Of a DNA stretch of 33,443 bases, positions 1-17,798 are shown piece after piece. Positions within the stretch are counted from its first letter, which is position 1; the number at the start of each line of letters is the position of its first letter. The stretch spans positions 64,001-97,443 of IMG/VR virus record IMGVR_UViG_3300020045_015898. One strand, written 5' to 3'. The DNA is from a virus. Lineage: Duplodnaviria > Heunggongvirae > Uroviricota > Caudoviricetes > Crassvirales. A program made the position numbers and the translations under genes. The notes under the pieces were generated by a model, which saw nothing but the letters and a program-made list of their open reading frames with translations, was not told the DNA's origin and did no database searches.

Positions 1-1360
1 TATTTACGGATTCTCTCTCGGCATTTATTGAAGCTAGTTCTGTTACGAATGTTTTCTTTCTACCATCTGAAATCTCTCCTCTATCGTGAAGTGAGATAAT
101 CATTGTTTCAATCTCGTCTAGAAGTCCAAAAGCTGAATTGTATTCTTTTAGTTCTGCAATAACTTCCGGAGTCATTTTATCACCTCTTTTTAGTTTAGCA
201 ATTCTATTTTTCATCAATTTAATTTGATACTTAGACCATTTGTTGTATTTTAATAAGCCGTTTATTTGGCTTGTAGTGCTATACTTTTCTAAAAGATTTT
301 TTAATTCTTCTATTTTTTCAAAAGGAGTCATTTCATTTTTTGCGTGAGCTTTTACTTTTCTTTCAGTTTCTTTTGCCCTTTCAGCAACGCCTACAGGTTT
401 ATGCTGTTCAAAAATAATAGAAATTCTAGCCTGAACTTGTTCATAAACTGATTCTAAACTAGTTTCAATTTTAGTTTCAATTCCAGTTTCTTCATTTATA
501 AATTTACCAACTCTTTGCTCCATTGACTGGTCATTTAAGTTTTCAAGTAAATCTTGATTAACTCTTTCGTCAAGCAACTCTTTTGTTAAAGATTCAATAG
601 CGTAAGAATCTAATCCAAATGTTCTACGAAGATAGTCCATAACCCAATTACGAAACGATTCCCATGCTGATTTAGTTTCAGCGGAAGTTCTTTCGTCCCA
701 TATTTCAGATCCTTTTCTACCTATAGCTGTTGCTAAAATTTCTTTATGCAAATCATCTTCCATAAGCTCAGGATAAAGCGCTTTTACTTCTGACCATAAC
801 TTAGTACCTCTAAGAGAAGATAATCCTTTCTGAAGTCTAGGATTGGCTAATCCTTTAGGAAATGAGTCTATAAATATGTGACTAAACTCATGTATAGCAG
901 TAGTCTTAAATATTTTTGCTGGATTAATTAGTATTACTGGTTTTCCTGCAGCAATAGTTCTAGGATCATTTGAACCAAGCACTCTTGAAGTTTCTACATC
1001 TGAATCCAAAATAACATCAACATTCATGTTCTCTTGAAGTAATTCAATTTTTTGAGCAAACGTATTCATATCTTCCTCTAAATAGTCTCCATTTAATTGA
1101 GACTTTTCTTGTGCATAGGAAAATCCTTTTGCTTTGTCAATTGCCTGAAAAAGAGCAGTATTTGGTATTGCTTTGTTGTTTTCTTCAAGAAATAATTTTC
1201 CTTTAGTTCCATAGTTTTTTTCTGCAAAATCAGAGAACTTTTTATTACTTTTTCTAAATATATTTTCATCTATAATGTTCAAGAACTTATCTATCGCACC
1301 ATTAGTGCGCATCCACGCTTTGGTGGATGCTTCACTAGTTTTAAATTCACATGATTTCAT
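1..1360 (-). CDS. Large virion cargo protein with zincin-like (HExxH) metallopeptidase domain, phi14:2 gp67-like position; runs off the window edge
   Basis: Not in the ORF track; translated by hand. ATG at 1360, 1 nt after the RNAP stop (MKSCEFKTSEASTKAWMRTNG...). Frame appears open to the window edge (~453 codons). TTAIHEFSHIFID (HEFSH at 878-892) is followed by HKEILATAIG. Confidence 0.85.
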   Translation of the reverse strand, partial: MKSCEFKTSEASTKAWMRTNGAIDKFLNIIDENIFRKSNKKFSDFAEKNYGTKGKLFLEENNKAIPNTALFQAIDKAKGFSYAQEKSQLNGDYLEEDMNTFAQKIELLQENMNVDVILDSDVETSRVLGSNDPRTIAAGKPVILINPAKIFKTTAIHEFSHIFIDSFPKGLANPRLQKGLSSLRGTKLWSEVKALYPELMEDDLHKEILATAIGRKGSEIWDERTSAETKSAWESFRNWVMDYLRRTFGLDSYAIESLTKELLDERVNQDLLENLNDQSMEQRVGKFINEETGIETKIETSLESVYEQVQARISIIFEQHKPVGVAERAKETERKVKAHAKNEMTPFEKIEELKNLLEKYSTTSQINGLLKYNKWSKYQIKLMKNRIAKLKRGDKMTPEVIAELKEYNSAFGLLDEIETMIISLHDRGEISDGRKKTFVTELASINAERESVN

Positions 1361-1361
1361 A

Positions 1362-4300
1362 TTAACAGGTTAATGGGTTTTCACTCGTATTTGTTTCGTC
1401 TTCTTCTGACAAAGGTAATGCTTTATTTTCTTTCTCTCTAACTGGAGATAACATATCTTCTTTTAAAAATAATCCTCTAGCTCTAGCTTCATCCATAAAC
1501 TCATTAATTTGAGCCTTTTGAGACTCACTAATGTTATTTTCAGATATTACCGAGTTAGTTGATTTCTTGTCGTATTGATATTCAACTATGCTACCATTAT
1601 TGTATTTTGCTCCAAGTTTAAAAGTTCTAACGTAAGTTGGCATGAACTTTTCTTTCTCATTGCCATTTTTATCAACAACTGTACTTTTAGACATTCCTAC
1701 TAATTTATAAAGAACGGTAGTTTCAGAAGGAATACCACTATATTCTCCATTATCTTTGAAAACTCTTGAAACAAATTCAGGATAAGTTCCAGATCCATCT
1801 TTAGAAAGTCCAGTCATAATACCTCCTTTAGTTTCAGTTCCTTCATCGTAAACAAATCCGGTTGATGCAATTGTATTTCCAACTCTCTTGATGTTTTTAG
1901 AAGATACTCTTTGAACTATCTTTCTATCGGCAGAAGAGTGTCTGAACATTTGGTCCCTAAAATCTTCACTCAAGTCCATAGCGTTCATTTCTTGATGAAT
2001 AGCTTTGATGTGTTCTGATACTCCTGCATTAACTAATGCTTCATGAGGAATATGAGTAAAGAATTGATTTAAATTAGTTTTAAATCCAGATTGGCTAAAT
2101 GCGTATCTAATTAATCTATTTCCTAAAACCCTCTCTTCTTTAACGTTACTTCTTAACAATTCAACCCAAGCTCTATATATTTTATTGTTATAAGTCTTAG
2201 GCTTATTCTTGCTACTAATTTTCAAGAAATTATATCCCGCAGAACTTTTTATTTCTAGTTCTTGTATTAAGAAATTAGTAGATCCGTCTTCTTTCATTTT
2301 ATATATATCTTCCGGAACTTGTCTAAATAGTAGATCAATGTCATTTAAGTTTTCTTTGAAAATTTCAAGTCCAGACATAGCGTAAGAATAGAAGTCAGCA
2401 GAAATGCTTTTTATAAACTCTTCATTTGTAGATAACGCTCCCTTTCCAGTTCTTTCAGACATGTTATTTATTGTTGATTGAAGAGTTGGATTTGCAGATA
2501 TGAATAAATCATTATCTACTACTAACTTGTTAACCCAATCAATACCATTTTGTCTATAAGTACCAGTAAATGTATCTTTAAATTTATCAACGAAACCTTG
2601 AATCTTATCGTTGAATAATACATTTTCGTACTTATTTTTAGCAACCATCATTTGAGCAAAATCTCCTGCATCAGGAGTTTTAGACGCTCCTACAGCTTCG
2701 GCAAAGAATTTTGATTTTTCTTGAAAGTACTCAAAAATATTAAGAGTTTCTTCTTGCATCGCTACTTCTTCTTCAGTGAAATTACTCATATCTTTATCTT
2801 TGCTGAACTTTTTAATAGTCTCTTCTAATTGTTTAAAAGAGTATTTCTTAAGATAGTTTTCAACATCAATAGCGTTGATAGGTTTTTTTCCTAATCCATT
2901 TGACTTTCTTACAAACTCAGTAGCATTAAATCTTTCACCATCAATTTCTAATTCTTGAGAAGTTATACCTTCTGAATTTTTTGTCGTTCTAGTCATCTCA
3001 GAAAGCATTGGCTGAGCAATAAATCTATTTACCCATTCAACTGGAGTACCTGCGCGCAGCAACATAAATGTAACTCCTGAAGTTATTCCATTGTGATTTC
3101 CTCTAGAGATATATGGATCTTTAGCAATATCTACGTAAGCATTTAAAAATGCTGAGATTGCATCTGCAATAGCGTGTCCGTCGTTTATGTCATATTCATT
3201 ATCAAACTTTGTATTACCAAAATTATCTTTGGCGCCTATACCTAAGTATCCGTCAAAAGTTATATTTTGATGTCTATTTACCATGTGATCTACAAGTTGA
3301 TTAGCAGTTTGAGCTACACCAATCTTTCCAGATAAGTATTCAAATTTAGTTTTCATTTGGTAGGTAGGAGAATAAAAAGTCAAATCTTCCAGAGAAGTCT
3401 CCGGAAACATTCCAACAATATCGTCCTTGAAAAATGAAGCATCAATAGACGTCATGACCTTATCGTAAGCAGATTCGCTCTTAAGAATTGAAGAGTATAA
3501 ATCAATTAATCTATTCTGAACAGCCTTCATGCTTTTTGAATTCTCATCATGCGGAACAGCAGTTACTTTTCCAGTAGTTCTATCTACGTGAAGATTTGGC
3601 ATCATTACGTACATTTTATCAATATCAAAATCCGAACCAGTCTTAGCCGGAACAGCATCGTATGCGATTATTGAATCTCCAACTCCAGGAGGAAGTATAC
3701 CTACAATTTCCATCGCGTCATTAGACGACATTCCTTGATTAGGAATCCTGTATGTAACTAACTGCAAAGCAGAAGGATCTATCATAGCCATTAACTGCTT
3801 ACCTGACATTCCATTCCAATCAGTTCCTTCCGGAAGTAATTTAAGTAATGCTGAGTGAGGCATAAAACATTGTCCAGGCATGTAAGTCTTGGTTGCTTTG
3901 TCATAGTGTGGCGGTTTCAATCCTTTCTTATCGTAATTATCAGACACAATCTTAATACCAGATTTCTCTGTATCGCTAATCGCGTCGAATCCAAACTGGC
4001 TAACTTGAATAAATGAACCACCATTAGTGTAAACCTTTGTCAATTGTTTATTCATCATAGACATGAATACGTTCTCAACTTTATTTCTAATTTGAGGTAT
4101 TGCGTCAAATGGTAAATCTTTTTCAAGTGCTGCAAGTATGTTGTCATTTCCACCTCTTGATTTAAACTCAGATATAAGAGAAGAGTAAACTCTATCCATA
4201 TTATTTATCTTCATTTTACCAGTAGATGCGTCTTCTTTAATGTCAAACTCTTCCATCAAACTAGCTTTACCCATGTCAGATAAATTAGATAACGTAGAGT

Positions 4301-7300
4301 GTATCATTTCAAGAATTTTATCTCCTTGAATTTCTTCTCCATTAAAGTTGTAAATTCCATTTACATCTATACCGGCCAAGATGTTCTTTTGAATTTGTGA
4401 CCCAACCATTGTCTCATGAGCAAGTTTTGTAGGAAGATCTTGTTGTAGTTTCCAACCTCTATTTTTTAAAGGAACAGGATTTAATTCAAAATCAACTTTC
4501 ATGTCTCCATTTGGTTCGTGAATTAGTGTAGGAGCAGTAGCTCCAACTTTAATTCCATCAATAGTCACAACTTCGTGTATTTCATCTTTACCAGAAAGAG
4601 TATTTCCGTCTTTATCCTTTGTCATTTTATCCAGCAAAGCTTGCATTGGAGTTCCTTTTACTAGCTGAGGTATAAGTACTGCTTGAGAGTATTTAAGATA
4701 AACAGGGACAGTAGAATTAAGCTCAAAGTAAACTCCTTTCATTGGCTGAGCAACTAATTTCATTTCATTTTTAGATAGCTTTTGACCTACTTTTCCATTT
4801 TTAGGATTAACATACATCATTTTCTCCCAAGCAGATTGATGAGATTCAGGACCAGTAGTCCATTGACCTAATCTTTCCTTAAGGAATTTCCATCTTCTTG
4901 GGGTAATCCAGGCTTGAGCATCAGTTGAGTTTACCCCACCTTTATTGTATGCGTCAGCAATAGACTTGTCTTTTACAGACTCTCTAATTAAATCTACATA
5001 TCTAGAAGATATTTCAACTCCTTTCACAGTTGCTTGATTAAAATACACATGGTCATTAAGTGATAGAAACAATTGTAATCCATCAGTATATGACGCCGGA
5101 GTTCTCTTAATCATGTCAGACATGTTTTTAAAGTATGCAGGATCTCCTAAGAATAATTTGTTGTACTCAATTGTATTTATAATACTATTCATAAAGAAGT
5201 CTCCAGACATTGCACGAACCGGATCTCTAGAACCTTCATAAGCTCCAATTATATTCTCATCAACAGACAAGTTTGTCGCAACTTCAGCAGTGTGAATAAT
5301 TCCCATGTCGTCCATGTTCTTTAAATTCTCATCCAGTCTAGTTACTAATGCTTTTTTTATTGATTCTTTAACTATAGCTTTTTGTTCATTAGTCATTCCA
5401 GAAGTTGAGTACATTCCATTTTCTTGACCCAACGGTAATCCGTCTTTGTATAATGTAATATATTCTAAAGAATCTTTATCCATGTTTTCTGGAGATAAGC
5501 TAGGAAAAGTTTGTGATTTAAGTCCATTAGGAATTCCTTTACCTGTAGTATGATAATGCACTATTAATTTTTCAGGACTCAAAGTAGCTAATTCATTGCT
5601 AACTTTTTTCATTCTATTATACTCATCTTCAAAGTAATCAGATAAAACAGTTAAGGTCTCATCATTAATATACCATTCTCCATCAACATAATCAATTTTG
5701 GAATCAAAAGTTGGCATGCCTTCAATCTCAATCTTTCTACCTTTATCAGCAGCAAGAAGAGTTTGTGCGTAATTTTTTCCTCCAGCTTTGTGGCCAAGAG
5801 TTTTAGCGATTGCGTTATTAAGCGCATCGACAGGTGATATTTCTTTGGTGTCTTTACCGTCATTTTCCCCTTTAGATTTGAATGAACTATCTAGTCCAAT
5901 TTGTATTTCTGAGATTCTTCTTTTTGATTCCTTTTCTCTTTTGCTTGCATTTGAAGCTATTAAAACTCCTTGTCTACTTTTCTCTGCATTAAGCAAATAT
6001 TTAAGCCAAAGAGAACCTTTATGATAAGCACTTACCGCAAGTTTATCTAATTCAGAAGCGTCTCTCTTCCATTCGTTTATTACGTTATGTAAGTAAGATG
6101 GGTTTGAGTAAGCAAAATAACTTTTACCATTATTAGCAAGAACATTGTTTTCTGCCATATTTATTTCAAATAAAGCTTTTGCTCTTGATAATAATTTTAC
6201 AACTTCCTGATTGTCAAATGGATTCACTTTTTCATCTCCAGCAATCAATGATGTATTTGGATCAAGTATGTATTTAAGCATATAGTCAGTTGACTTAAAC
6301 AAATCAAGTATTGACTCAACAGCTTTTTCTTCTCCTCCTGTCATTCTCATATAAGAAATAACATCGTTATTAGTTATTTCGGCGCCAAGACCGTTGAATA
6401 AATCAACTACTTTTGGTATTTGCAACATAACTTGTCTCATTTGAACTGGATGCTCTTGGCCAGCTATTAATTGACCAAAATCTCTCATATTCTCAGTAAG
6501 AGCAATCTTAGTTTGAGCGATAGCGTCCCTAGCGTCGTCATTTAATTCATATCCATTAGTGAATGTCTTAGCGAATTTAACTCCCCACTGACCTCGTATT
6601 TTACTGTCTCTTGAATTGGTAGAAGTAGCATTGATTATTTTATACTTATTTGTAGTTTTATCTACCTCAGTTACATAAAAGTTAAGTTTTGATTTAGCAA
6701 AAGTTTGAACGAATTGAGCTTGTTGATTGAGGTCCATTTTGTTTACTCTTTCTAATAGTCCACCCATCCATGGCTTAACTGAAGCTAAAGCTTTCATTTC
6801 AATCTTCATTATGTCTAGCGCGTTGACTAAATCGCCGCCATTACTATTGTGAGATACTATATCTGACAATAATGGCTGAAGCGTACCCCAAACATCATCG
6901 AATTCTGCAAACTTAGCTTTACCTAAGAAAGAGTCTCTTTTGTGGCGAATCCTTGGAACAGAAAGATCTTTTACATCTTGCTCACTAAGATTTCCAATAA
7001 CTTCTCCTTTTAAATGTCTTTGTCTCAATCCGTTGACTTGAACTTGAGTTAATTTATGTCTTTCAGCAACTCTTTTTGAAGCAGCAGAAAACTCAGGATT
7101 ACCTTCAGTGTCCGGCAATAAACTAAGAACTAATTTAATTCTTGCTGGAGCTGTTTCTTTTGAATTAGTTTCAAATGATTCAGCAATATTTATTCCTCCT
7201 GCCTTATCGTCTTCTCCTAATTCAGTTTCGTATTCTCCTTTTTCATTAAGAATGCTTTGACGATAAGTTAATCCTAATTCTTCAATTTTATTCAACACTT

Positions 7301-7868
7301 CAATCTTAAAATCTTCTTTATATTTTAAAACCAAATCAGCTCTTCTCAATAATTCTGGATCAGACACTGAATTTTTGTAGTTTTGAATAAAGTTTTCTAT
7401 AGTAGAGATTACTTTTTTTGGATTTAATTTTGATAAATCTTCAAAGTTCTCAGCCATATTCTCTGTAACAAACGCATTAAGAATTATTTTAGAAACCTCT
7501 TCAGATTGATCTGAAGTCATTCCAGGGAACTTAATCTTGTTGATATATTTTCTTATTCCATTAGGAAATTGAAAGTAATACTGATCGTATTCAGTAACTT
7601 TGTCTCCTTTGATTACTCTTTTTTTAATCAATTTAGGTTCTCCTTGGTCATTAACTCTAGTAGATATTTTAGAACCTAAAGGTAAATTAATATCTTCTGA
7701 ATGCCCATTCGAAAACGAAGTAACATAGTCTCCAAAAAGATCTATGAATTTATTTCCACTAATTTTAGAGTACTCAGCAAGTGCCGCGTCTTCTCCTAAG
7801 ATTCTTTCAAGTTCTTTGTACAGTCCGGATTCTCTCCCATCTGTCTTTGCAAATACTTTACAAGCCAT
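1362..7868 (-). CDS. Virion-packaged single-chain DNA-dependent RNA polymerase (double-psi beta-barrel, phi14:2 gp66-like)
   Basis: 2168 aa. Catalytic GSDFDIDK (DFDID at 3618-3632, residues ~1413-1417), upstream YRIPNQG, and STDAQAWITP and LFLGDPAYFK segments. Size and motif match phi14:2 gp66 as recalled. Confidence 0.92.
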   Translation of the reverse strand: MACKVFAKTDGRESGLYKELERILGEDAALAEYSKISGNKFIDLFGDYVTSFSNGHSEDINLPLGSKISTRVNDQGEPKLIKKRVIKGDKVTEYDQYYFQFPNGIRKYINKIKFPGMTSDQSEEVSKIILNAFVTENMAENFEDLSKLNPKKVISTIENFIQNYKNSVSDPELLRRADLVLKYKEDFKIEVLNKIEELGLTYRQSILNEKGEYETELGEDDKAGGINIAESFETNSKETAPARIKLVLSLLPDTEGNPEFSAASKRVAERHKLTQVQVNGLRQRHLKGEVIGNLSEQDVKDLSVPRIRHKRDSFLGKAKFAEFDDVWGTLQPLLSDIVSHNSNGGDLVNALDIMKIEMKALASVKPWMGGLLERVNKMDLNQQAQFVQTFAKSKLNFYVTEVDKTTNKYKIINATSTNSRDSKIRGQWGVKFAKTFTNGYELNDDARDAIAQTKIALTENMRDFGQLIAGQEHPVQMRQVMLQIPKVVDLFNGLGAEITNNDVISYMRMTGGEEKAVESILDLFKSTDYMLKYILDPNTSLIAGDEKVNPFDNQEVVKLLSRAKALFEINMAENNVLANNGKSYFAYSNPSYLHNVINEWKRDASELDKLAVSAYHKGSLWLKYLLNAEKSRQGVLIASNASKREKESKRRISEIQIGLDSSFKSKGENDGKDTKEISPVDALNNAIAKTLGHKAGGKNYAQTLLAADKGRKIEIEGMPTFDSKIDYVDGEWYINDETLTVLSDYFEDEYNRMKKVSNELATLSPEKLIVHYHTTGKGIPNGLKSQTFPSLSPENMDKDSLEYITLYKDGLPLGQENGMYSTSGMTNEQKAIVKESIKKALVTRLDENLKNMDDMGIIHTAEVATNLSVDENIIGAYEGSRDPVRAMSGDFFMNSIINTIEYNKLFLGDPAYFKNMSDMIKRTPASYTDGLQLFLSLNDHVYFNQATVKGVEISSRYVDLIRESVKDKSIADAYNKGGVNSTDAQAWITPRRWKFLKERLGQWTTGPESHQSAWEKMMYVNPKNGKVGQKLSKNEMKLVAQPMKGVYFELNSTVPVYLKYSQAVLIPQLVKGTPMQALLDKMTKDKDGNTLSGKDEIHEVVTIDGIKVGATAPTLIHEPNGDMKVDFELNPVPLKNRGWKLQQDLPTKLAHETMVGSQIQKNILAGIDVNGIYNFNGEEIQGDKILEMIHSTLSNLSDMGKASLMEEFDIKEDASTGKMKINNMDRVYSSLISEFKSRGGNDNILAALEKDLPFDAIPQIRNKVENVFMSMMNKQLTKVYTNGGSFIQVSQFGFDAISDTEKSGIKIVSDNYDKKGLKPPHYDKATKTYMPGQCFMPHSALLKLLPEGTDWNGMSGKQLMAMIDPSALQLVTYRIPNQGMSSNDAMEIVGILPPGVGDSIIAYDAVPAKTGSDFDIDKMYVMMPNLHVDRTTGKVTAVPHDENSKSMKAVQNRLIDLYSSILKSESAYDKVMTSIDASFFKDDIVGMFPETSLEDLTFYSPTYQMKTKFEYLSGKIGVAQTANQLVDHMVNRHQNITFDGYLGIGAKDNFGNTKFDNEYDINDGHAIADAISAFLNAYVDIAKDPYISRGNHNGITSGVTFMLLRAGTPVEWVNRFIAQPMLSEMTRTTKNSEGITSQELEIDGERFNATEFVRKSNGLGKKPINAIDVENYLKKYSFKQLEETIKKFSKDKDMSNFTEEEVAMQEETLNIFEYFQEKSKFFAEAVGASKTPDAGDFAQMMVAKNKYENVLFNDKIQGFVDKFKDTFTGTYRQNGIDWVNKLVVDNDLFISANPTLQSTINNMSERTGKGALSTNEEFIKSISADFYSYAMSGLEIFKENLNDIDLLFRQVPEDIYKMKEDGSTNFLIQELEIKSSAGYNFLKISSKNKPKTYNNKIYRAWVELLRSNVKEERVLGNRLIRYAFSQSGFKTNLNQFFTHIPHEALVNAGVSEHIKAIHQEMNAMDLSEDFRDQMFRHSSADRKIVQRVSSKNIKRVGNTIASTGFVYDEGTETKGGIMTGLSKDGSGTYPEFVSRVFKDNGEYSGIPSETTVLYKLVGMSKSTVVDKNGNEKEKFMPTYVRTFKLGAKYNNGSIVEYQYDKKSTNSVISENNISESQKAQINEFMDEARARGLFLKEDMLSPVREKENKALPLSEEDETNTSENPLTC

Positions 7869-7888
7869 ATTTATTATTTTAAATTGTT

Positions 7889-7917
7889 AAAAAATAGCCC
7901 TTCGTTAAAAGGGCTAT
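7889..7917 (-). terminator. Rho-independent terminator between the 1769-aa gene and the vRNAP gene
   Basis: 9-bp stem ATAGCCCTT/AAGGGCTAT (7894-7902, 7909-7917), 6-nt loop, followed by a T-run on the minus strand. Confidence 0.75.
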
Positions 7918-7925
7918 ATATTGTT

Positions 7926-10900
7926 TTAGAATCCACAACCTGCTTCATCTTGGAAATCATTATAAAAATCTGACAATGAATCTTCCTCGTTGTATTGAGC
8001 TAGATTAACATCATCATTGCTAACTTGATTAAAATCAGGAACTTTCTCAGTTTCTAATTGAACATCAAGTGTGCTAGTTGAATTATTAATTTCATCAAGA
8101 GCAGATAAATCTGCTTGTTCTTGCTCTATCGCTAATTCATTTGACAAATCTAATGAATTCATTCCCATTAATAGCATTCTTGGATCACTAATTTTAGGTG
8201 ATTCTGCAGAATCGTCTTTTCCAAAGATATCTTCAATAGTAAGTTCTTCTTCAACAGGATTCTTTGATTGGTAAATTTCTATAGCAAAACCAATAGAATC
8301 TTTTATTCTTTTAGCGGCTTCATCTTTATCAGTTACTAATAATGTTCTAGCTTTAGCTCCTTCAAATGGACCAACTAATCCCATAGATTCGAGCATATCA
8401 ATATATTTTCCAGCTTGATTGTACCCTAATTTCAATCCTCTTTGAATTGCTGAGGAAGAGCCTGAGCCATTTAGAATAACTACTTCTGAAGCCTGAATGA
8501 ATTTGTCAACTCTTTCTTTATCAGCTAAGCCTGACATGTCTACAAATTCCTGATAAATCTGATTAATCTCTTCATCAGATATCTCTCTAGCAGGAGCTTT
8601 TCCTTGCATAGCTTTAGCATATCTTTCGCTAGCTTCTTTAATTCCAGCTTTATTCTTTGCTGTAATTTCAGCTTGTATCTCTTTCTTTCTATCCAAAGGA
8701 ACTGTATCTATTGCTCTTTGCTCCTCTACAGTAAAATCAGTTATTGACTTGCCATTAATCATCTCTCTGACTAAGTCTTCTCCTGTTGTAGTTATTATTT
8801 CTTCAGAACCAACTTCTTCAGTTTTGCCTGTAAATTTACCGGTGTATTTTGCCATTACTTTGGCTCCAACTGACGATGTAGATAAGATTTCATTACCATT
8901 AGAAGCTGAGCCTGGAGTGATATTGATTATAGTATTTAATGCAGTCGCTGCATAAACCTGATTACCAATAGTTATTTTTTCATACTTAAGAAGTCCTGAT
9001 TTAAGTAAAGCTTTGTTGATTAATTTAAAGTCTTTCTTAGGATCTAATTCTTTACCAGTTTTTTCATTAACAACTATCCCTCCATCTTTAATAACTAAGT
9101 TAAAATTACTTTTAGAATCTTTCTTAATCACAACTTTTATTTCATTAGTATCCTGCTCAGGCAAGTTCGACATGTCGTCTTGTTTTCCTTTTGCAGCTTT
9201 TGCTACTACTGGAGCCGGCTGAGTTTGAACAACTACCTTTGTAGCAGGACCAGAAACTTTCTCTGCATTGTACTTGTCATTAACTGCTTGTTTTGCTAAT
9301 TCTGCAGTATCTCTTAATATTTCTACAGCAGTATTAGAAGAGTCATAGTATGTTGCGGCGAATTTACCATTGGTTGATTTGTCTGAATACGTACCAGCTT
9401 TTTCTGACATCTTTCTTCTTTCAGATTTAGGCTTTCCTCCTGGAACTGGAGGAGTGTGTTGTAATAGTTGAGCTGGATTAGAGACTGGAACTGGTTTAAC
9501 AGTGTCAGGAGCTTTAATATAAATATCAGTTTTACCTCCAAATAAAGGTCCATTGGTTACCGCATCAGTATTTATCAATCCAGAAGAGATTGCGTAATCT
9601 CTATATGCCGGTGAAGATTGCCATAATCCAACATTAAATTGTCTTCTTTTAGTGTTCATTAAAAACTCAACTAGTTTCTCATGATTGAATAAAGATTTTG
9701 GAGTAACTTTTAAATCTGCATTACTAAACTTTACCCACTCACCACTAATAAACAACTCTGAAGCTTTCCCTTCAGTTTGAGGAGATACGTATGTAAAGAA
9801 ATCTACTATATCCATTAGAGAAGGATCTGCTTTCTCCATGGCGTCCAACTCTTCTTTCATTGTTTCAAGAATTTTAAGTCTTGTTTCTTCCTTCATTTGT
9901 GACAAAGGAGTTTCAAACTTATTTTCTTTAGTGATTACAGAAGTCAACAATCCTGCTATTATTTCAGCTTCATTTTGACTATGCTTTTTAACATTAAGTT
10001 TTAATGGAAATTTAGTTCCATCAGCTTTTGGTACTGATAAAAATATTGTACCTCTCATTGGAGTCTTTGCCCCAGTAGTTCCTGTAAGTAAAGGAAGTGT
10101 TAATTGTCTACCTATAAATTCTTTATGACGCTCACCATCCATATTCATTAACTCTCCGAATTCATTTGTGTACATTAAGCTTTCTTCTATAGCTTGAGTT
10201 ACTTGATTTGGTGATGCTTCAGCTCCTTTTAAATCAAACAATTCATCCATTATTGGACCTAAGTGTTGTAAATCACCAATTTTATTTTCTGGTATTACTC
10301 CGTCAATAGCTGGTGCCGCATTAACTTTTCCTCCGTATTGAACAGTTACTTTTGAAGTAGTAGTTTTAGATGGATTAGAATTCATTTGATCTATAAATGC
10401 TTTTCTAATAGGAAAATCTTGTCTAGCCCAAGCTGCTTCGTATCCTGAATTTTGCCCTTCAAGTCTAGCTGACAAGAATGCATTTCTTTCATCAAACTCA
10501 GTGTCTCCGTCTTGCTTATCTATTACTACTTTTAAAGGAAGGTGATTGTATACGTTTGCATTGATGATTCCATTATTGAAGTCGTCTATAGCTTGTTTTA
10601 CTAATTGAGGTTGCTTCGCTCCTGCATAAACTACTGTTCCTGGCTGAATAGTAACCTGAGTTCCTATTTTGTTTTTTCCATTCAACATCCAGTCATTGTA
10701 ATTTTTATTGCCAGTAGCTCCATAAATACTAGTATTCTCTGATGCTTCTGACATTTTTTTCTTAGCAATGTCGCTTTGTTTAACCATGGCTCCATGAATA
10801 TCAACCTCTTCTCCAGCAAGTTCATCTTCTAAATTTTTTCCTACTGGAATTATATTATTATCTGGAACAGCTGCCGGATTGTTTATAGCTGAAGCCTGTG

Positions 10901-13235
10901 ATTCTTTAGTAAGAGTTGATTTATGCTCGTCTTGCTTAGCTTTAGCGGCACTATTTTTCTCTTCTATAGCTATCTCATCAATTCTTTTATCTACCAACGC
11001 GTGTAGTTCAGCTTTCTTTTCTTTTGAAGTTTTTGTGTCTTCATCAATATTAGCTTTAGCCTGCATTGCCTGTTCTACTGATTTAAGACTCTTAACTCTA
11101 TTTCTCATTTGAACCATTCTTAATTCTGCCTGATGAGATTTAGATTGAAGCTTAATGTTTTCTTTTTGCATCAAGTTTATAGCGTCAGTAAGTAGAGTAT
11201 GCTCTGTAGCTTTTACTATAAGGTCCTCAGAAGATTGCTCATATCCAGCGCCAATTAACTTGTCGCTATCTTTCTCATCTTTTGTTCTTGGATCGTTTGA
11301 ATTAAGTTCAACCATTTTAAGATTTAACTTGTCAATTATCTTTTTATTCTTGTCTATTAAGGCTTGTCTGTTTTCTATCTGATACTTTGATTCAGTATTT
11401 TTCATTGCAGCTTCGTGAATCTCATTTGCTTTTTTAAGAGCAACTAAATTTCCTTTTGTTGAGAATTTATCCTGATAATGACTAGTTAATTTGTCTGCAT
11501 TAGGAACTGAATCTTTTATGTTTTGAATCTCCTTAGTAACTTCTTTTGTTCTATTATCAAATGATTTTACATAATGGTCATTTGAAGCCATTTTAGCGGC
11601 AATATTACTATCGTACTTATTGGAATGCTTAAGATAACTTTCTCTTATGCTATGAGCTTGCGATATCAAGCTAGGAACGTATTTCTTAAACAATTCAGGA
11701 TCTAATTCAATACCTAAATCTTTTTCAAATCCAGCTTGCTCAGCTTGAGACATTTTTGACATTCCTTGTAAGGATTCAATATACTCAGCAAATTTTCCGT
11801 TATCGATAGCATCTACAGCCATGTGTACTCCAGAACCGTCAATTGCAGCTTGTCTTTTAACCGGATCTCCAGATTGGTCAGCCTTTGCAATTTCATTCTG
11901 CATTAATTGAAATGAAGCTCCGCGTCTAGTAATATAATCTCCTTGTATACTAGCATAATTTGCTTCTGCATTTTTTCTTTCTGTAGATTTAAATAATTCA
12001 GACGTTCCTTTCCCGGCCGCTTGAAATATATTTCCACCTAATCCTCCCCAGAAGGCAGAAGTAAGCATTTCCTTGTCGCCAATTTTAGAACTTGTTTTTT
12101 GATCGTATTCTTTTTCAGTAATCAATCCTGCTTTTAAATCAGAAAGTAATTTACCTCTCTCAGCTACATAATATTGGTAAGATTCTTCCGCACCCTCTGA
12201 TGCGAATGTCGCACCTCCGGCCATTAATGCTTCTTTTATTCCTGGTTTAACTCCACTTGCAGTTATTTCAGCAATCTTAGATTCCATCTTCATGGACACT
12301 GGATTGAATACTTTTCCTAATGCCAAGTATTGAGGTATGTCTTGAAGCAACATCGCCCAGTCAGATCTGTAAGTAGACGAAGCTCCTTCTGATGCCAATT
12401 GAGTTGCTTCTTCTTCTGTGAAGTACTCTTTAGTTTTTGGATTAATTCTAGACTGAAGTGATGCTTTTTGTTCGTTAAATACTCCTGAAGCTTCCATAGA
12501 GTTCTCTATGTGTCTTGAAACTATAGCTTGAGTAATTCCTTCTGCCATCCATGTTTCGTACTTACCCATTCTTGAAGCTATATCTAAAGATTTGCTGATT
12601 ATACCGGCTCCTTTAGAAGCAGTTTTACCAAGCATTCCTAATACTTTAGTTGCGGCTCCGGAAGGAATAAGCATAGACAATGATGAAGCAACAGAAACTC
12701 CGTTACTAAACCACCATCCGGAATCTCCCATTCCAGAATCTTTTACTTGATGAATAGCCATATTCTCTTGAGCAAATTCACGAGTGTCTTTACCAAGTTC
12801 AGTCATCCAGTTTCCCCAGTTTTGCTCTGTTCCTCCAAGATAATCTATAGCACTTCCTATCTCTCCAATATAACCAAGTCCTTCTATAGTACCACCAATA
12901 ACCTCTCCAATAACAGCTTGCCCAACCATGTTTCTTGCTTGCTCAAACCATCCTTGTTGATTGGCTCTATCTTCATTAAGAGCCTCAACTCCTCCTGGGC
13001 CAAGAACTATGTTGCCTCTGTTATAGTCAGTTTTGTAATCTTCAACATCAATACCTACGTGATAATTAACGTCTCTTTTACCTAAGCTTTTTCTATCAAT
13101 TCCACCAGGAGCAACGTCGTACTCCTGTGGTTTTAATTTTGGTGCTTTTACTGGCGGATCTATTTTTGTACCTTTATCAATTGTCTTAACTGATTCTTCG
13201 GAACTAACTATATTAAAATCTTTTTCTTCTGCCAT
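7926..13235 (-). CDS. Large ejected virion cargo protein (phi14:2 gp65-like position) with C-terminal FtsK-gamma domain
   Basis: 1769 aa. N-terminal Gly-rich hydrophobic helices, long coiled-coil region, and a C-terminal string of small domains including SSSAIQRGLKLGYNQAGKYIDMLESMGLVGP. Lies directly upstream of the vRNAP gene. Confidence 0.75.
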   Translation of the reverse strand: MAEEKDFNIVSSEESVKTIDKGTKIDPPVKAPKLKPQEYDVAPGGIDRKSLGKRDVNYHVGIDVEDYKTDYNRGNIVLGPGGVEALNEDRANQQGWFEQARNMVGQAVIGEVIGGTIEGLGYIGEIGSAIDYLGGTEQNWGNWMTELGKDTREFAQENMAIHQVKDSGMGDSGWWFSNGVSVASSLSMLIPSGAATKVLGMLGKTASKGAGIISKSLDIASRMGKYETWMAEGITQAIVSRHIENSMEASGVFNEQKASLQSRINPKTKEYFTEEEATQLASEGASSTYRSDWAMLLQDIPQYLALGKVFNPVSMKMESKIAEITASGVKPGIKEALMAGGATFASEGAEESYQYYVAERGKLLSDLKAGLITEKEYDQKTSSKIGDKEMLTSAFWGGLGGNIFQAAGKGTSELFKSTERKNAEANYASIQGDYITRRGASFQLMQNEIAKADQSGDPVKRQAAIDGSGVHMAVDAIDNGKFAEYIESLQGMSKMSQAEQAGFEKDLGIELDPELFKKYVPSLISQAHSIRESYLKHSNKYDSNIAAKMASNDHYVKSFDNRTKEVTKEIQNIKDSVPNADKLTSHYQDKFSTKGNLVALKKANEIHEAAMKNTESKYQIENRQALIDKNKKIIDKLNLKMVELNSNDPRTKDEKDSDKLIGAGYEQSSEDLIVKATEHTLLTDAINLMQKENIKLQSKSHQAELRMVQMRNRVKSLKSVEQAMQAKANIDEDTKTSKEKKAELHALVDKRIDEIAIEEKNSAAKAKQDEHKSTLTKESQASAINNPAAVPDNNIIPVGKNLEDELAGEEVDIHGAMVKQSDIAKKKMSEASENTSIYGATGNKNYNDWMLNGKNKIGTQVTIQPGTVVYAGAKQPQLVKQAIDDFNNGIINANVYNHLPLKVVIDKQDGDTEFDERNAFLSARLEGQNSGYEAAWARQDFPIRKAFIDQMNSNPSKTTTSKVTVQYGGKVNAAPAIDGVIPENKIGDLQHLGPIMDELFDLKGAEASPNQVTQAIEESLMYTNEFGELMNMDGERHKEFIGRQLTLPLLTGTTGAKTPMRGTIFLSVPKADGTKFPLKLNVKKHSQNEAEIIAGLLTSVITKENKFETPLSQMKEETRLKILETMKEELDAMEKADPSLMDIVDFFTYVSPQTEGKASELFISGEWVKFSNADLKVTPKSLFNHEKLVEFLMNTKRRQFNVGLWQSSPAYRDYAISSGLINTDAVTNGPLFGGKTDIYIKAPDTVKPVPVSNPAQLLQHTPPVPGGKPKSERRKMSEKAGTYSDKSTNGKFAATYYDSSNTAVEILRDTAELAKQAVNDKYNAEKVSGPATKVVVQTQPAPVVAKAAKGKQDDMSNLPEQDTNEIKVVIKKDSKSNFNLVIKDGGIVVNEKTGKELDPKKDFKLINKALLKSGLLKYEKITIGNQVYAATALNTIINITPGSASNGNEILSTSSVGAKVMAKYTGKFTGKTEEVGSEEIITTTGEDLVREMINGKSITDFTVEEQRAIDTVPLDRKKEIQAEITAKNKAGIKEASERYAKAMQGKAPAREISDEEINQIYQEFVDMSGLADKERVDKFIQASEVVILNGSGSSSAIQRGLKLGYNQAGKYIDMLESMGLVGPFEGAKARTLLVTDKDEAAKRIKDSIGFAIEIYQSKNPVEEELTIEDIFGKDDSAESPKISDPRMLLMGMNSLDLSNELAIEQEQADLSALDEINNSTSTLDVQLETEKVPDFNQVSNDDVNLAQYNEEDSLSDFYNDFQDEAGCGF

Positions 13236-13246
13236 GTTTTTATTTA

Positions 13247-15478
13247 TTATCGTTGATAAGCATCTAGTATGTCTATAACCGCATCTACTCCTCCTGCTGG
13301 AAGGCCTTTACTTTTAACTACATCTTTTCCGCCACTTTTATTATATCTGTCTTTGTCTATCTTATAAACTACAAAAGATTCTGACCCTTCATCTTCTTTT
13401 CTTATTTTCTCAACATAAAGTAATTGACCGTCCTTGGTTTCTTGATTAGGAATAACTCCATGAGAAAATGATTGTTGATGAATTCCCATTCCTCCTACGT
13501 CTCCTGCATAATATGAATTCTTAATCATTCTGTCTCCATCGTTTTTGTATGCTCCTGAATTAACTAAAGATTGTCCAACTTGTCTTTGAAGGATTTTACC
13601 TTGCTCTCCTCTTGTTATGGCTCTTGCAGCAAGGAACGTTCCGTCTTTATCTTTAGCAACTAAAGTTTCAATTGGATTTCCAGCTAAATCATAACCATTT
13701 GTTGGCATTACGTAATACTTAGTTCCTTTTGGTTGTGCATCTCTAAATTCATCTAACGATGCTCCTGAATTAGCTTCTTTCCACCCTTGACCTCCTCTAG
13801 CATTAAATGAATCAGTAAGTGCTTTTTGAGCCGCTCCTGTAACACTTGAATACTTACCTGTTGATGATCCATCGAATGTCTGATAACTTGCTGCTGCAGG
13901 ATTATCTTTAAGGTAATTTTTAGCTTTCTTTTCGTAAGAATCAGTTTTATCAAGATACTCTCCGTAAGCTTGGTTAATGTTTCCATTTTTAGGAAACAAC
14001 AATCCTTTGTTAAGCATTACTAATTTTTTTACTTCAAATTTATATGCGCTTTCGTTAGGTATAATCATCATTGAAAGTTTCGTTCTTTGAGAATCAGTAA
14101 GTCCTAGCTTTTTTTCTTGAGCATTTCTATAGTCTCTTTGCACTAGTTCTCCTCCAAAAAGTCCTCTAATTTTTTCTCCAAAAGAAGGAGCGTTTTTAAG
14201 CATGTTGTCTATTCTATTATCAATGCTAGCGCCTTCTGCCACTCTTCTTCTATCTATATTATTCATGCCTGCATTAGATCTTTCGTAAATTGCATTAAGA
14301 TTAGAAGATAAATTTTGATATTTAATACCGGCTTGTTGATTTGCATTATTTAATCTATTCCATTCGTCATCAGTTCTTGGATCAATTCCTTTTCCTTTAA
14401 GAGCTTCGGCTTTCTTTCTCAATTGATAAGAAGTAGAATCTATTTCTCCTTTAGCTATTCCAAGATTAGATTTTAAATCCTCGTATTTAACAGGAGGAAT
14501 ATCTAACAATCCTGAATCAGCAGCAATAACCATATCGTTTGCAGCTTTCTCGTCTAAACCTCTATTCATCATTGCTATTCCTACGTGATCTGTAACCATT
14601 GTATATTTAGCATCTTCTTTTCTGTAAGCAGCGCCTGTAGCCGCGCCAAGTAGTTGGGCGCCGAAGTAGGATTTAGGAACAAATACTTCTTTACTAACTC
14701 CGTCTTTCTTTACAATTTGGTATTCACCAATATTTGTTGGGTCTTTTTCTCCAGAAAAGGCAGAAGATTGTTTTAACGATGCTTGTAATTTATGGTCGTA
14801 TTGAGCTTGAAGCGCCAATGCTTTAATTATTTTAGAAGCATCTTTATGCTCTACAGTACCGCTTTTCCATGCAGTTTCGAATTGAGCAACAGTTCCATAC
14901 TTTTGAAGCATAATTGGATCTGTATCTGCGGCAACTTTGGCAATATTGTCATTGATCCATTTATTAGTATCAACATAATCTTCAAGTTCTTTTCCTGAGA
15001 AAGAATTAAATTTTCCTGCTCCGGCATCAGTTCCTTTAAATGAAGCAACTTGAGCTTGAGCCCATTTTTTTGCTTCAGAAGGAGACCATCCGGCCTGTCT
15101 TTCTTTTTTTTCAGTAAGATCTTTAACGAATGCTGAAGCTGAAGAGTAATTTGCTTGTGCGTTACCAATCAATCCTTGTTGTCCGAATTCTTTTTCTTTA
15201 GACCTCTTAAGTTCATTAAGTTTAGCCATAGTATTTCTATCAACCCCTCTATCTAATAAAGTAGCTGTTATTTTATTTGCCTCACCTCTCAAGCTTTCTA
15301 ACTTTCCAGTGACAGCCTCTCTGTCTTGTTCTAGACTAGATGCTTGTAATGCAGCATATTCATTAGCAGCACTTTGCGCTTCATCATGTTGCTTTTGCTT
15401 AGCCATTGGAATCATCATTATTGTCTGTAAATCCAGAGGTTTAAATGATCCAGTGCTTAGTGATGTGTATCTATTCAT
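13247..15478 (-). CDS. Virion cargo/ejection protein (crAss-like, helical N-terminus)
   Basis: 743-aa ORF starting MNRYTSLSTGSFKPLDLQTIMMIP; lies in the cargo block between the muzzle and the RNAP. Function from synteny only. Confidence 0.6.
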   Translation of the reverse strand: MNRYTSLSTGSFKPLDLQTIMMIPMAKQKQHDEAQSAANEYAALQASSLEQDREAVTGKLESLRGEANKITATLLDRGVDRNTMAKLNELKRSKEKEFGQQGLIGNAQANYSSASAFVKDLTEKKERQAGWSPSEAKKWAQAQVASFKGTDAGAGKFNSFSGKELEDYVDTNKWINDNIAKVAADTDPIMLQKYGTVAQFETAWKSGTVEHKDASKIIKALALQAQYDHKLQASLKQSSAFSGEKDPTNIGEYQIVKKDGVSKEVFVPKSYFGAQLLGAATGAAYRKEDAKYTMVTDHVGIAMMNRGLDEKAANDMVIAADSGLLDIPPVKYEDLKSNLGIAKGEIDSTSYQLRKKAEALKGKGIDPRTDDEWNRLNNANQQAGIKYQNLSSNLNAIYERSNAGMNNIDRRRVAEGASIDNRIDNMLKNAPSFGEKIRGLFGGELVQRDYRNAQEKKLGLTDSQRTKLSMMIIPNESAYKFEVKKLVMLNKGLLFPKNGNINQAYGEYLDKTDSYEKKAKNYLKDNPAAASYQTFDGSSTGKYSSVTGAAQKALTDSFNARGGQGWKEANSGASLDEFRDAQPKGTKYYVMPTNGYDLAGNPIETLVAKDKDGTFLAARAITRGEQGKILQRQVGQSLVNSGAYKNDGDRMIKNSYYAGDVGGMGIHQQSFSHGVIPNQETKDGQLLYVEKIRKEDEGSESFVVYKIDKDRYNKSGGKDVVKSKGLPAGGVDAVIDILDAYQR

Positions 15479-15635: not shown

Positions 15636-17798
15636 TTAAGCTTTTTTGGTAGAATCTACTTGATCTTTAAGCTTTTTATACTTTCCTTTCCAGTCATAAT
15701 CAGCTCCCATCAATTCAGGGAACTTCTTATACAGTTCTTCTTGACCTACAGCTCCTAAGTCTGCCGCAACTGCAGTTTTTAATCTGCTTTTTTCAGTGTC
15801 ATAAGCACCTTTATTTCTTGCTCTAATATCCTGAGCAAGAGTTTGTTGTTGAAGATTAGTTGTGTCAACTCCAAGATTAAATGATTGTTCTTGAGCATTC
15901 TCTCTAGCGTTTGCTTCTTGACTCTTCATAAATGCATCGCTTAATGCTTTTGTTGCATTTAATTGCGTGCCTAGTAAATTTGCTCTTGCAGCATTTCCAG
16001 AGCCTTCAGAAGAACTCAATATTGCTTCTCTATTACCTGCAGTTTCTTCTCTAACTAAATTAATCAATCCTTGTTCGTCTACTACATTTTTTTTATATCT
16101 AGTACTTAATTCAGGAGTTGTTTCTTGTTCAGGTTTCTTTAGATTAGCTAATTGCATTATGTTTCCAATTACAGGAGCGTATCTTAAAGAGTCTTTATTA
16201 TCAAGTACTGCGTCTTTAATTTTATTTGCTACTGATTTAGGTTGTTTTGATTTCCAGTCATCATAATACTTGTCAAGACTCTCTTGAACTCCAGTGACTC
16301 CAGTTGCATCAGTTGCATCAGTTTCTTTTTTTATTAAGCTCATCAAGTCTGCATCCATCTCCTTAGATACGCTTGGCTTTATAAATTTTCCATCTGCTCC
16401 ATATCCGGATGTTTTTACAACTGCTTTTACAGTTTTTGTTTTTGAATTATGTTTATGTCCTTGAGGTCCTCCTTCGTGAAACTTATTTAAATTTCCTCCC
16501 ATATTAAATTGATTGTCGTTGACTGCGGCATCTGCGTAAGTTGCATTTCTGTTAGCAATATTTGCATCTTTCTGTTGTTTCTTTGCTCCTATTATACCGG
16601 CTGCTCCTCCAATTACTGCTCCTGCTGCTGCTCCCCAAGGTCCTAATGCCATTCCTGCAGAAGCTCCTTTTGTAGCTCCAGCAAATGCTGCATTACCAAC
16701 TTTTTTACCTTCAACTTTGACTCTACCTGATGTGTCCACTCCTGTTGGACCAAAAGCTTCTTTACCAAGTTCTAATGCTGTAGCTCCCATTTTAGCATAT
16801 CCCATTACTCCTGGTCCACTTGATCCTTCTTGAGTTCCTGTTTCCGCTGAAATACTAGATTCTGTAGAATTGATTGGCCCCATTGAAGGTGACTGCATTG
16901 GATTTACCTGTCCTGGATTTAAAGTAAAGTAAGGATTGTTATTTTTATAATATTGATTTTGATCTCCTCCAAGATCGAATTTATTGCTTTCTTCTTCTCC
17001 TGTAGCTTTAAAATTACTTGCAGTATTAGCTAAGGACATTATTGATGAAGATATCGGTTGATTATTAGCTTGAATTATAGGAGAAAATCTTTGTTCTGCA
17101 GTTTCTGGCATGAAATGCATATCGTCTTCATCTCCTCCTAATGCCATTTTACTTTGTCCTTGCATGTAAGCTTTCCATTGAGGTGTTCTTTGAACTGCCA
17201 TCATTTCTTCTTGATTAACGAATTCTCTGTGTCTCAATGGATCGAACCCTGCTTCTCCTGCGTTTTTACTGTATAAGTAAAATCCACTTTTTCCAGTTTC
17301 TCCAGAAGTAACTCCGGGTTGATATCTCACAATTTGCTTTGTATCAAAATCCATATTATCATTAGTTGGCAAATCACTTATACCTGTAAGCCCTACAACT
17401 TTTCCCTTTATGTTTGACTTAGGAACTGGAGTTTCTTCGCCTGGACCACCGTAAGCATATTGATTACCTCCATAAGCGTTTTGTATTTGACTCATTAAAT
17501 CTTCTTCTGAACTTTGCTCTTGATTATACTCTTGAGTTATTTCATTTTCATCTAAAGGCATTCCTTCTGAACCAGCGACTAAGTCTCCTCCACTTCTTTC
17601 CGGCTGCTCTTGAGCTTCTTTTTGTGCTTTTACATGCTCTTGCATTTGCTTAAGCCTGTCAAGCATTTCTTTTTCAGTGTTTATTGATTCAGGATCAGTT
17701 CTTTCTTTGAATTTAGATTGAATCTTCTTGCTAGCATCTGCGAAGCTAAGTCCGTCTATGTATCTAGGAAGCTTAAATTGTTCTAACATTGTGTTCAT
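15636..17798 (-). CDS. Cargo protein 1-like ejection protein with glycine-zipper membrane segment
   Basis: 720 aa. Low-complexity regions with repeated [FYM]xxGG motifs and a hydrophobic GASAGMALGPWGAAAGAVIGGAAGIIG segment. Position after the muzzle resembles crAss001 C1 as recalled. Confidence 0.65.
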   Translation of the reverse strand: MNTMLEQFKLPRYIDGLSFADASKKIQSKFKERTDPESINTEKEMLDRLKQMQEHVKAQKEAQEQPERSGGDLVAGSEGMPLDENEITQEYNQEQSSEEDLMSQIQNAYGGNQYAYGGPGEETPVPKSNIKGKVVGLTGISDLPTNDNMDFDTKQIVRYQPGVTSGETGKSGFYLYSKNAGEAGFDPLRHREFVNQEEMMAVQRTPQWKAYMQGQSKMALGGDEDDMHFMPETAEQRFSPIIQANNQPISSSIMSLANTASNFKATGEEESNKFDLGGDQNQYYKNNNPYFTLNPGQVNPMQSPSMGPINSTESSISAETGTQEGSSGPGVMGYAKMGATALELGKEAFGPTGVDTSGRVKVEGKKVGNAAFAGATKGASAGMALGPWGAAAGAVIGGAAGIIGAKKQQKDANIANRNATYADAAVNDNQFNMGGNLNKFHEGGPQGHKHNSKTKTVKAVVKTSGYGADGKFIKPSVSKEMDADLMSLIKKETDATDATGVTGVQESLDKYYDDWKSKQPKSVANKIKDAVLDNKDSLRYAPVIGNIMQLANLKKPEQETTPELSTRYKKNVVDEQGLINLVREETAGNREAILSSSEGSGNAARANLLGTQLNATKALSDAFMKSQEANARENAQEQSFNLGVDTTNLQQQTLAQDIRARNKGAYDTEKSRLKTAVAADLGAVGQEELYKKFPELMGADYDWKGKYKKLKDQVDSTKKA

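Follow-up and report, generated by a model that had tools for sequence, protein, structure and literature searches.

The RNA polymerase cargo block and its cysteines

The window analysed here, 33,443 nucleotides long, comprises bases 64,001-97,443 of the IMG/VR record IMGVR_UViG_3300020045_015898, a virus genome of 97,443 bp with direct terminal repeats that is rated 100% complete. Its minus strand carries the late structural genes of a marine crAss-like phage in one block, which includes the RNA polymerase (RNAP) cargo block. This report concerns three consecutive giant proteins of that block, called here the gp67-like protein, the RNAP and the gp65-like protein, and the cysteines at their ends. 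In the direction of transcription the order is a muzzle-type virion protein, a 423-residue tail protein, a 720-residue homolog of cargo protein 1, a 743-residue protein, the 1769-residue gp67-like protein, the 2168-residue RNAP and the gp65-like protein (Table 1). The closest named phage is Cellulophaga phage phi14:2, to which the identity is only 32% (RNAP). The G+C content of the phage genome is 34%.

The identity of the three proteins was established by comparison with known sequences. The RNAP matches PDB 6VR4 (phmmer E 1.2e-232), has 32% identity to its phi14:2 counterpart over 89% coverage (tblastn) and carries the catalytic DFDxD motif in the form DFDID. The gp67-like protein, whose gene lies directly upstream of the RNAP gene, is homologous to phi14:2 g067 (BLASTP E 2e-13 over 310 residues). 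The gp65-like protein is homologous to phi14:2 g065 (BLASTP E 1e-100), in which a zincin domain has been recorded (10.1101/2020.03.07.982082). A search of PHROGs gave no match for the RNAP or the gp65-like protein. Packaging in the virion and injection have been reported for the RNAPs of phi14:2 and crAss001 (10.1101/2020.03.07.982082, PMC10172136), and the synteny within the structural block suggests that the RNAP of the window is likewise packaged and injected.

The three proteins are strongly depleted of cysteine. Their 5,321 residues contain 5 cysteines, compared with about 41 expected from the 0.775% cysteine content of the other 92 open reading frames (ORFs) of the phage genome (Poisson P = 1.4e-12). 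The gp67-like protein has a single cysteine, residue 1767 of 1769, as has the gp65-like protein, residue 4 of 1384, and the RNAP has one near its start, one internal and one as its last residue. The probability that at least four of five cysteines fall within the 16 junction-facing positions is 4e-10. A preliminary description of the window had located the four terminal residues and considered their coincidence with the junctions unlikely to be due to chance. Both points are upheld; every codon checked, including all four terminal ones, is TGT on the minus strand at the position claimed. The long acidic tethers that it saw ahead of both C-terminal cysteines are present in the gp67-like protein (Table 1), the tail of the RNAP being acidic only over its last ~20 residues.

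The arrangement can be put as a rule: at each junction the upstream protein has a cysteine within about 15 residues of its C-terminal end and the downstream protein has one within 8 residues of its N-terminal end, the outer ends of the chain have none, and there are few or no internal cysteines. The window follows this rule with one internal cysteine besides. That residue, Cys1334 of the RNAP, lies ~80 residues before the DFDID motif; one internal cysteine is found nearby also in close relatives and in crAss001 gp50, and phi14:2 has none. The hairpin between the gp67-like and RNAP genes has a 10-bp stem; by contrast, a single nucleotide separates the RNAP stop codon from the ATG of the next gene. 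The FtsK_gamma domain of the gp67-like protein, situated ~135 residues before its C-terminal cysteine, is present in closer relatives only.

Table 1. Features of the cargo block, with positions in the window
Feature	Position	Strand	Basis
Muzzle-type virion protein	19152-23294	minus	
720-aa cargo protein 1 homolog (PF25725 crAss_CARG1), 0 Cys	15636..17798	minus	PF25725 match and Cys table
743-aa cargo-block protein upstream of the gp67-like protein, 0 Cys; negative-control junction	13247..15478	minus	Cys table
gp67-like giant cargo protein, 1769 aa, chain link 1; sole Cys is residue 1767	7926..13235	minus	phi14:2 g067 homology and synteny
FtsK_gamma (PF09397) winged-helix domain, gp67-like residues 1577-1634	8334..8507	minus	E 2e-16
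Acidic tail formed by the last 120 aa of the gp67-like protein	7929..8288	minus	30 Asp/Glu vs 5 Lys/Arg
TGT codon of Cys1767 (..EAGCGF), C-side of junction 1	7935..7937	minus	
Terminator-like hairpin and T-run, 57-nt gap between gp67-like and RNAP genes	7894..7917	minus	
Virion RNA polymerase (phi14:2 gp66 family), 2168 aa, middle link; Cys 3, 1334, 2168	1362..7868	minus	
TGT codon of Cys3 (MACK), N-side of junction 1	7860..7862	minus	
Internal RNAP Cys1334 in conserved ..PGQCF.. core motif; outside the terminal rule	3867..3869	minus	
Catalytic DFDID motif, RNAP residues 1413-1417	3618..3632	minus	Invariant in RNAP-core alignment
TGT codon of Cys2168, last RNAP residue (..PLTC), C-side of junction 2	1365..1367	minus	
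gp65-like RNAP-associated protein, last link; first 453 aa in window, full 1384 aa in genome	2..1360	minus	
TGT codon of Cys4 (MKSC), N-side of junction 2	1349..1351	minus	
HEFGH zincin-type metalloprotease motif, gp65-like residues 157-161	878..892	minus	H157, E158, H161 invariant in alignment

Terminal cysteines across Crassvirales

The same placement is found in named phages. In phi14:2, g067 (1797 aa) has a cysteine at position 1797 only, g066 (2180 aa) at 3 and 2179, and g065 (1421 aa) at 3 only; the proteins of the two phages share 22-32% identity and have the rule in common. In crAss001 the cysteines stand at 2339 of 2341 residues in gp47, at 5 and 2404 of 2412 in gp50 and at 5 in gp49, and in DAC15 at 2220 of 2222, at 5 and 2265 of 2265, and at 4. 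Both of these phages encode the first chain protein on the opposite strand and keep the rule. The preliminary description had spoken of gene-order junctions; the cysteines do lie at junctions, and gene order proved incidental, since it is broken in crAss001 and DAC15. Likewise, the rule is intact in a locus (L049) in which an unrelated, cysteine-rich gene is inserted between the RNAP and its partner. It was also found in p-crAssphage (record BK010471), the Suoliviridae, Flavobacterium phage Fpv1 and 79 IMG/VR loci. The terminal-cysteine rule is a feature of the proteins that spans Crassvirales, and not a feature of gene order.

The homologs of each protein carry cysteines only at the ends that face a partner. 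Both terminal cysteines are present in 94 of 98 unfused, near-full-length RNAP homologs from metagenomes, and 83 of the 98 have exactly two cysteines. A cysteine lies among the last 15 residues of all 36 gp67-like homologs, 34 of which have no other, and the N-terminus has none in any of them (0/36). Among 62 gp65-like homologs a cysteine occurs in the first 8 residues of 60, at the C-terminal end of none, and is the only one in 57. When the last 180 residues of 38 RNAPs were aligned (mean identity 16%), the sole invariant column was the cysteine. Several marine RNAPs (P0002, P0006, P0003; P0014, P0018, P0023, P0044, P0054, P0062, P0071) are tail or insert variants. Some have an extra domain of ~95 residues in the C-terminal tail just before the cysteine, and others have helicase-type inserts or C-terminal extensions (PF13604, PF13245, PF13538).

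In the Intestiviridae (p-crAssphage, cr11_1 and crAss002) the domains are cut differently. A protein of 1957-2020 residues ends in ..SCM, ..YCE or ..VCS, and the next protein, of ~4,100-4,400 residues, starts MSC. Because these phages cut the domains elsewhere and still have cysteines at the breaks, the cysteines track break points rather than particular domains. A lone cysteine near the C-terminal end is also present in p-crAssphage gp47 (856 of 857; L016:3588-6161) and crAss002 gp30 (550 of 557; L017:4393-6066), and no facing N-terminal cysteine was found in the protein that follows either of them. In four Suoliviridae (cr4_1, cr109_1, cr53_1 and cr115_1; L009, L010, L012 and L014) the giant cargo genes contain 18-80 in-frame stop codons when read with translation table 11, which fits the known stop-codon reassignment, and the rule holds once these are read through.

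A census was made of 81 non-redundant chains, which comprise the 79 IMG/VR loci, named phages and the window and contain 122 protein-to-protein junctions. The loci were collected by an RNAP-core alignment search, which was used instead of a single-protein locus search that gave only relatives of 97-98% identity. Cysteines stand on both sides of 120 of the 122 junctions, and at the other 2 the C-side cysteine is displaced and lies 18 and 32 residues away from the end; a C-side cysteine without an N-side partner never occurs (0/122). The N-side cysteine is mostly residue 3 or 4, and the C-side one mostly the last, second-last or third-last residue. Outer C-termini have no cysteine (0/74) and neither does any true outer N-terminus. 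The 203 proteins contain 247 terminal cysteines, against 90 internal ones in 413,728 residues (0.022%). As a control, the junction between the gp67-like protein and the cargo protein upstream of it has a cysteine on neither side in 7 of 7 loci. The preliminary description had named the conservation and co-occurrence of the terminal cysteines in orthologs as a test of its proposal, and down to 22-32% identity the cysteines are both conserved and paired.

A number of apparent exceptions were traced to annotation. In P0016, which appeared to have no cysteine (L005 ~9971), the start had been called 10 codons late and the true start is MGKNSNCI, and the annotated start of crAss002 gp33 (L017:15088-27825) is probably 32 codons early, MSC standing at residues 33-35. 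Four loci seemed to have an RNAP with an N-terminal cysteine as the first protein of the chain; each has a truncated upstream ORF, ending in ..NPC, ..PCKNN or ..ACGKKIF. The fusion in cr10_1 that appeared to have no partner has one that is merely unannotated and starts MKIICPN. Where both sides of a candidate junction lacked a cysteine, the neighbor was an unrelated ORF downstream or the cargo protein upstream, which lies outside the chain.

Fusions, splits and the pairing of the cysteines

The cysteines come and go in pairs when the chain is fused or split. Thirteen RNAP+gp65 fusions of 3,354-3,650 residues, confirmed by BLASTP, were found, and 13/13 are without both cysteines of junction 2 and keep the N-terminal one; the upstream gene was read at two such loci (L005 and L006), and in both the gp67-like protein has retained its one cysteine, the C-terminal one. 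Fusions of the other type, gp67+RNAP, number more than 20 (3,890-4,946 residues) and occur in the Suoliviridae, Fpv1 and many marine contigs. They lack a cysteine at the N-terminus and at the fusion point and have one 1-4 residues before the end, followed by a protein whose start is M-x-C; the Fpv1 fusion has a single cysteine in 4,401 residues, at the penultimate position 4,400. All 4,726 residues of a triple fusion (L067) are free of cysteine; by BLASTP its gp67-like sequence extends from residue 5, its RNAP spans 1462-3507 and its gp65-like sequence 3441-4726. In L096 the last protein is divided by a further split, which gives a middle piece with cysteines at 4 and at 1166 of 1167 and a following piece with one at 4. 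In RNAPs with helicase-type C-terminal extensions the cysteine has moved to the new extreme end.

A break of another kind is found in the gut phage cr108_1 (NC_055878.1), where a group I intron (L100:18371-18689; Rfam RF00028, 80 bits, E 8e-21) interrupts the RNAP gene inside the catalytic DFDID motif. There is no cysteine on either side of the intron, and the true downstream junction has them. The record annotates the intron-split RNAP as two separate proteins.

On a tree of the RNAP core (FastTree), a quick tree whose deep branches are uncertain, junction 1 switched between split and fused at least 7 times and junction 2 at least 5 times. The cysteines went with the split state in 4-5 of 5 and 4 of 4 phylogenetically independent contrasts, and the opposite direction was never seen. 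Pooled, 8-9 contrasts are concordant and 0 discordant (about 0.004-0.008), each test alone being too small to reach 0.05.

Chance, a compositional artefact of cysteine-poor, AT-rich genes, or a nucleotide signal at gene boundaries could be invoked for the window, where all four codons are TGT and the G+C content is low. Against this stand the probability of ~4e-10 in the window alone, the conservation across families at 22-32% identity, the variable distance of the cysteine from the protein end and the persistence of the rule on opposite strands or with genes inserted in between. The control junctions and the intron break are free of cysteine, and the census effectively refutes an explanation of this kind, the probability of which we regard as negligible. 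Varying offsets and opposite strands were also the grounds for rejecting a signal in the DNA or RNA at gene boundaries.

The four cysteines can pair in three possible ways, only one of which, gp67-like C-terminus with RNAP N-terminus and RNAP C-terminus with gp65-like N-terminus, forms a chain. This pairing alone leaves no orphan cysteine in either type of two-protein fusion, and it alone predicts that a triple fusion is cysteine-free and that a further split adds a further pair; the pairs are therefore read as head-to-tail links. An RNAP cyclised from N- to C-terminus together with a gp67-gp65 link was rejected, as were tail-to-tail and head-to-head pairing, since each would leave orphan cysteines in both fusion types. 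The C-to-N order proposed in the preliminary description is thus favored by the fusions over the alternative pairings. That fusions do without the junction cysteines is also the main argument that the fused and the separate states may be functionally equivalent. The preprint on phi14:2 gp66 assumes that the fused forms are polyproteins that are cleaved (10.1101/2020.03.07.982082).

Each terminal cysteine could also have a role of its own, in homotypic dimers, in anchoring to another virion protein or as a "cysteine switch" on the gp65 zincin, with no head-to-tail link at all. The N-terminal cysteine of the gp65-like protein does lie ~150 residues ahead of the HEFGH motif, and the lone near-C-terminal cysteines of p-crAssphage gp47 and crAss002 gp30 have no obvious partner. 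Independent roles would leave unexplained why junctions have both cysteines or neither (120 with both, 0 with the C-side alone) and why the outer ends of the chain are cysteine-free. Fusion, moreover, removes both members of a pair and a new split creates both, and the RNAP+gp65 fusions do without the supposed switch. We consider such roles highly improbable. The switch was rejected in its own right: it is absent in the fusions and would account for none of the other three cysteines.

Elsewhere in the window, the tail-fibre region (minus strand) contains two apparent pairs of paralogs, 27881-28471 with 29812-30801 and 26664-27872 with 28494-29792. The ORFs of 196 and 329 residues in this region both start MI(D/N)C and have cysteines in common at 4, 21 and 42; those of 402 and 432 residues both start MIYEIIN and are nearly without cysteine.

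A proposed reducible chain for ejection and its counterparts

We lean towards the view that the terminal cysteines form head-to-tail disulfides, which would make the three proteins a linear, reducible pseudo-polyprotein for ejection. The preliminary description had likewise suggested a train ordered for sequential ejection, and the comparative evidence supports the links that it proposed. In the virion, one disulfide would connect the C-terminal end of the gp67-like protein to the N-terminal end of the RNAP and a second the C-terminal end of the RNAP to the N-terminal end of the gp65-like protein, giving a chain of ~5,300 residues that would be unbranched on account of the position of the links at the extreme ends. 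The chain would be threaded unfolded through the portal and the tail in a fixed order and a 1:1:1 ratio, and the reducing cytoplasm would then cut the links and release the active proteins. The crAss001 cargo, it has been argued, must pass constrictions of <50 A in a partly unfolded state (PMC10172136), and an unbranched thread linked at its ends fits such a passage. The FtsK_gamma domain, a winged-helix DNA-binding domain, might in addition tie the protein chain to the DNA. In fused forms the zincin domain lies just past junction 2, where, speculatively, it could be the releasing protease.

We infer that the link is a disulfide from the single thiol on each side, the absence of conserved flanking ligands, the near ban on internal cysteines and the presence of disulfides in crAss001 virions, where cryo-electron microscopy has located them in the tail hubs, the rings and gp57 (PMC10172136). 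The ban is expected if the links are disulfides, because stray thiols would scramble or branch the chain.

Several observations weigh against a chain of disulfides that forms in the virion and serves ordered ejection and reductive release. Virion assembly occurs in the reducing cytoplasm. No thioredoxin, glutaredoxin or Erv1/Alr came to light when the phage genome was searched for them, a weak negative since the Erv1 control gave no match anywhere; with no phage thiol oxidoreductase found, oxidation would need to be spontaneous and to take place either within the capsid or once the cell has lysed. The rule also holds in gut crassviruses, whose anoxic habitat makes disulfides less favorable, and this leaves room for a metal-thiolate or other link; many gut phages, moreover, tolerate several internal cysteines. 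Several copies per virion would mean that any cysteine could pair with any other, so that the specificity of pairing is a difficulty. The two census loci with displaced C-side cysteines deviate from strictly terminal placement. The phi14:2 gp66 was purified and crystallised with dithiothreitol or tris(2-carboxyethyl)phosphine (10.1101/2020.03.07.982082), and the literature search found no non-reducing gel or disulfide map of virions. A complex prediction for the last 180 residues of the RNAP and the first 220 of the gp65-like protein, run on the window segments alone, gave no answer (score 0.00) and counts neither way.

The preliminary description had offered a shared metal as an alternative to disulfides. 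In that case the pairs would be real and the link would be a bridging metal (a Zn, Fe or Cu thiolate) or other thiol chemistry, workable in the anoxic gut, where the rule is kept; no phage-encoded oxidase was found, and the gp65-like protein is itself a zinc enzyme by its HEFGH motif. Two thiolates by themselves, however, would coordinate a metal poorly, and neither terminal cysteine has a conserved His, Asp or second Cys beside it. A single metal or cluster site shared by all four cysteines was rejected, because the fusions remove one pair and keep the other, so that pairs are lost independently. Disulfides are directly seen elsewhere in crAss001 virions (PMC10172136). A bridge by metal or other chemistry appears quite improbable.

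The tie may instead serve assembly, by fixing a 1:1:1 stoichiometry or by holding the partners of the RNAP complex together in the capsid, the order of threading being irrelevant. The three proteins are described as RNAP-associated and co-packaged (PMC10172136, 10.1101/2020.03.07.982082), and the fusions show that covalent continuity is tolerated. A disulfide cannot, however, drive co-packaging, as the cytoplasm is reducing at the time the procapsid is filled, and the placement at extreme ends and the near-total ban on internal cysteines are what passage along a narrow channel would call for and would be unneeded for mere association. A role confined to assembly is accordingly judged unlikely.

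Returning to the head-to-tail disulfide chain, its wider form is that the RNAP cargo of Crassvirales is one covalent thread of 5,000-6,500 residues, joined by peptide bonds where the genes are fused and by head-to-tail disulfides where they are separate. Fission and fusion would then be nearly neutral, cytoplasmic reduction would be the trigger of release, and a built-in zincin may release the fused forms. We hold the arguments for and against this general statement to be evenly balanced.

The window is a confirmed instance of an order-wide rule that appears to be unpublished. A full-text search of the literature found no description of terminal cysteines or of a cargo disulfide chain, in crAss-like phages or for ejection proteins generally, in agreement with the preliminary description, and the rule is described neither in the crAss001 structural atlas (PMC10172136) nor in the gp66 preprint (10.1101/2020.03.07.982082). 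The question bears on how crAss-like phages push megadaltons of protein, including an RNA polymerase of 2,000 residues, through a narrow tail. In the human gut no other viruses are as abundant as these phages, which are common in the sea as well. If the interpretation is true, an end-to-end tie would explain the order and stoichiometry of delivery, the free fusion and splitting of genes across the order and the near absence of cysteine, and a redox-cleavable pseudo-polyprotein would be a way of delivering proteins that has been described for no virus. The rule can be tested directly in cultured phi14:2 and crAss001. It is also an aid to annotation, as it locates true starts and protein boundaries and separates real splits from breaks due to introns or frameshifts.

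Among known systems, the closest is g067-g066-g065 of phi14:2 (Drobysheva et al., 10.1101/2020.03.07.982082), which resembles the window in gene order, protein sizes, families and the pattern of terminal cysteines; all three are virion proteins. The window differs in the FtsK_gamma domain of its gp67-like protein, in one extra internal cysteine of the RNAP and in sequence, the identity being only 22-32%. The preprint makes no mention of cysteines or disulfides. In crAss001, gp47, gp50 and gp49 are RNAP-associated cargo that is kept inside the capsid and, it is proposed, ejected in a partly unfolded state (Bayfield et al. 2023, PMC10172136), and they obey the same terminal-cysteine rule as the window. 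The disulfides published for that phage are in tail hubs, rings and the gp57 dimer and not in the cargo, which is unresolved in the structure; its gp47 gene is on the opposite strand and its host is anaerobic, unlike the arrangement in the window. The fused "polyproteins" of Crassvirales and Fpv1-like phages unite the same domains, in unchanged N-to-C order, in a single polypeptide (gp67+RNAP, RNAP+gp65 or all three). They differ from the window in having a peptide bond where the Cys-Cys link is proposed, and the junction cysteines are absent.

Podophages also deliver large internal proteins through the tail ahead of or with the DNA, as in the crAss cargo: gp50-gp52 of N4, gp14-16 of T7 and gp7, gp16 and gp20 of P22. 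In phage N4 (NC_008720.1) the virion RNA polymerase gp50 (3,500 aa), gp51 (644 aa) and gp52 (150 aa) have 0 cysteines each. Avoidance of cysteine therefore looks like the default for ejected proteins, with the crAss terminal cysteines as a deliberate exception, and such avoidance may be a general trait of tail-ejected phage proteins. N4 has no terminal cysteines, hence no covalent chaining is indicated, and its RNAP is a T7-like single-subunit enzyme, whereas that of crAss-like phages is of the two-barrel type. Reductive release of the phage cargo would resemble that effected through the interchain disulfide of AB toxins. In diphtheria toxin and the clostridial neurotoxins one disulfide holds the translocated chain to its partner in a narrow channel, and reduction in the cytosol frees the enzyme. 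These toxins have no homology to the phage cargo. Where the phage links would string the products of separate genes into a linear thread, both toxin chains arise by nicking of one polypeptide, and their disulfide does not connect them head to tail at the extreme termini.

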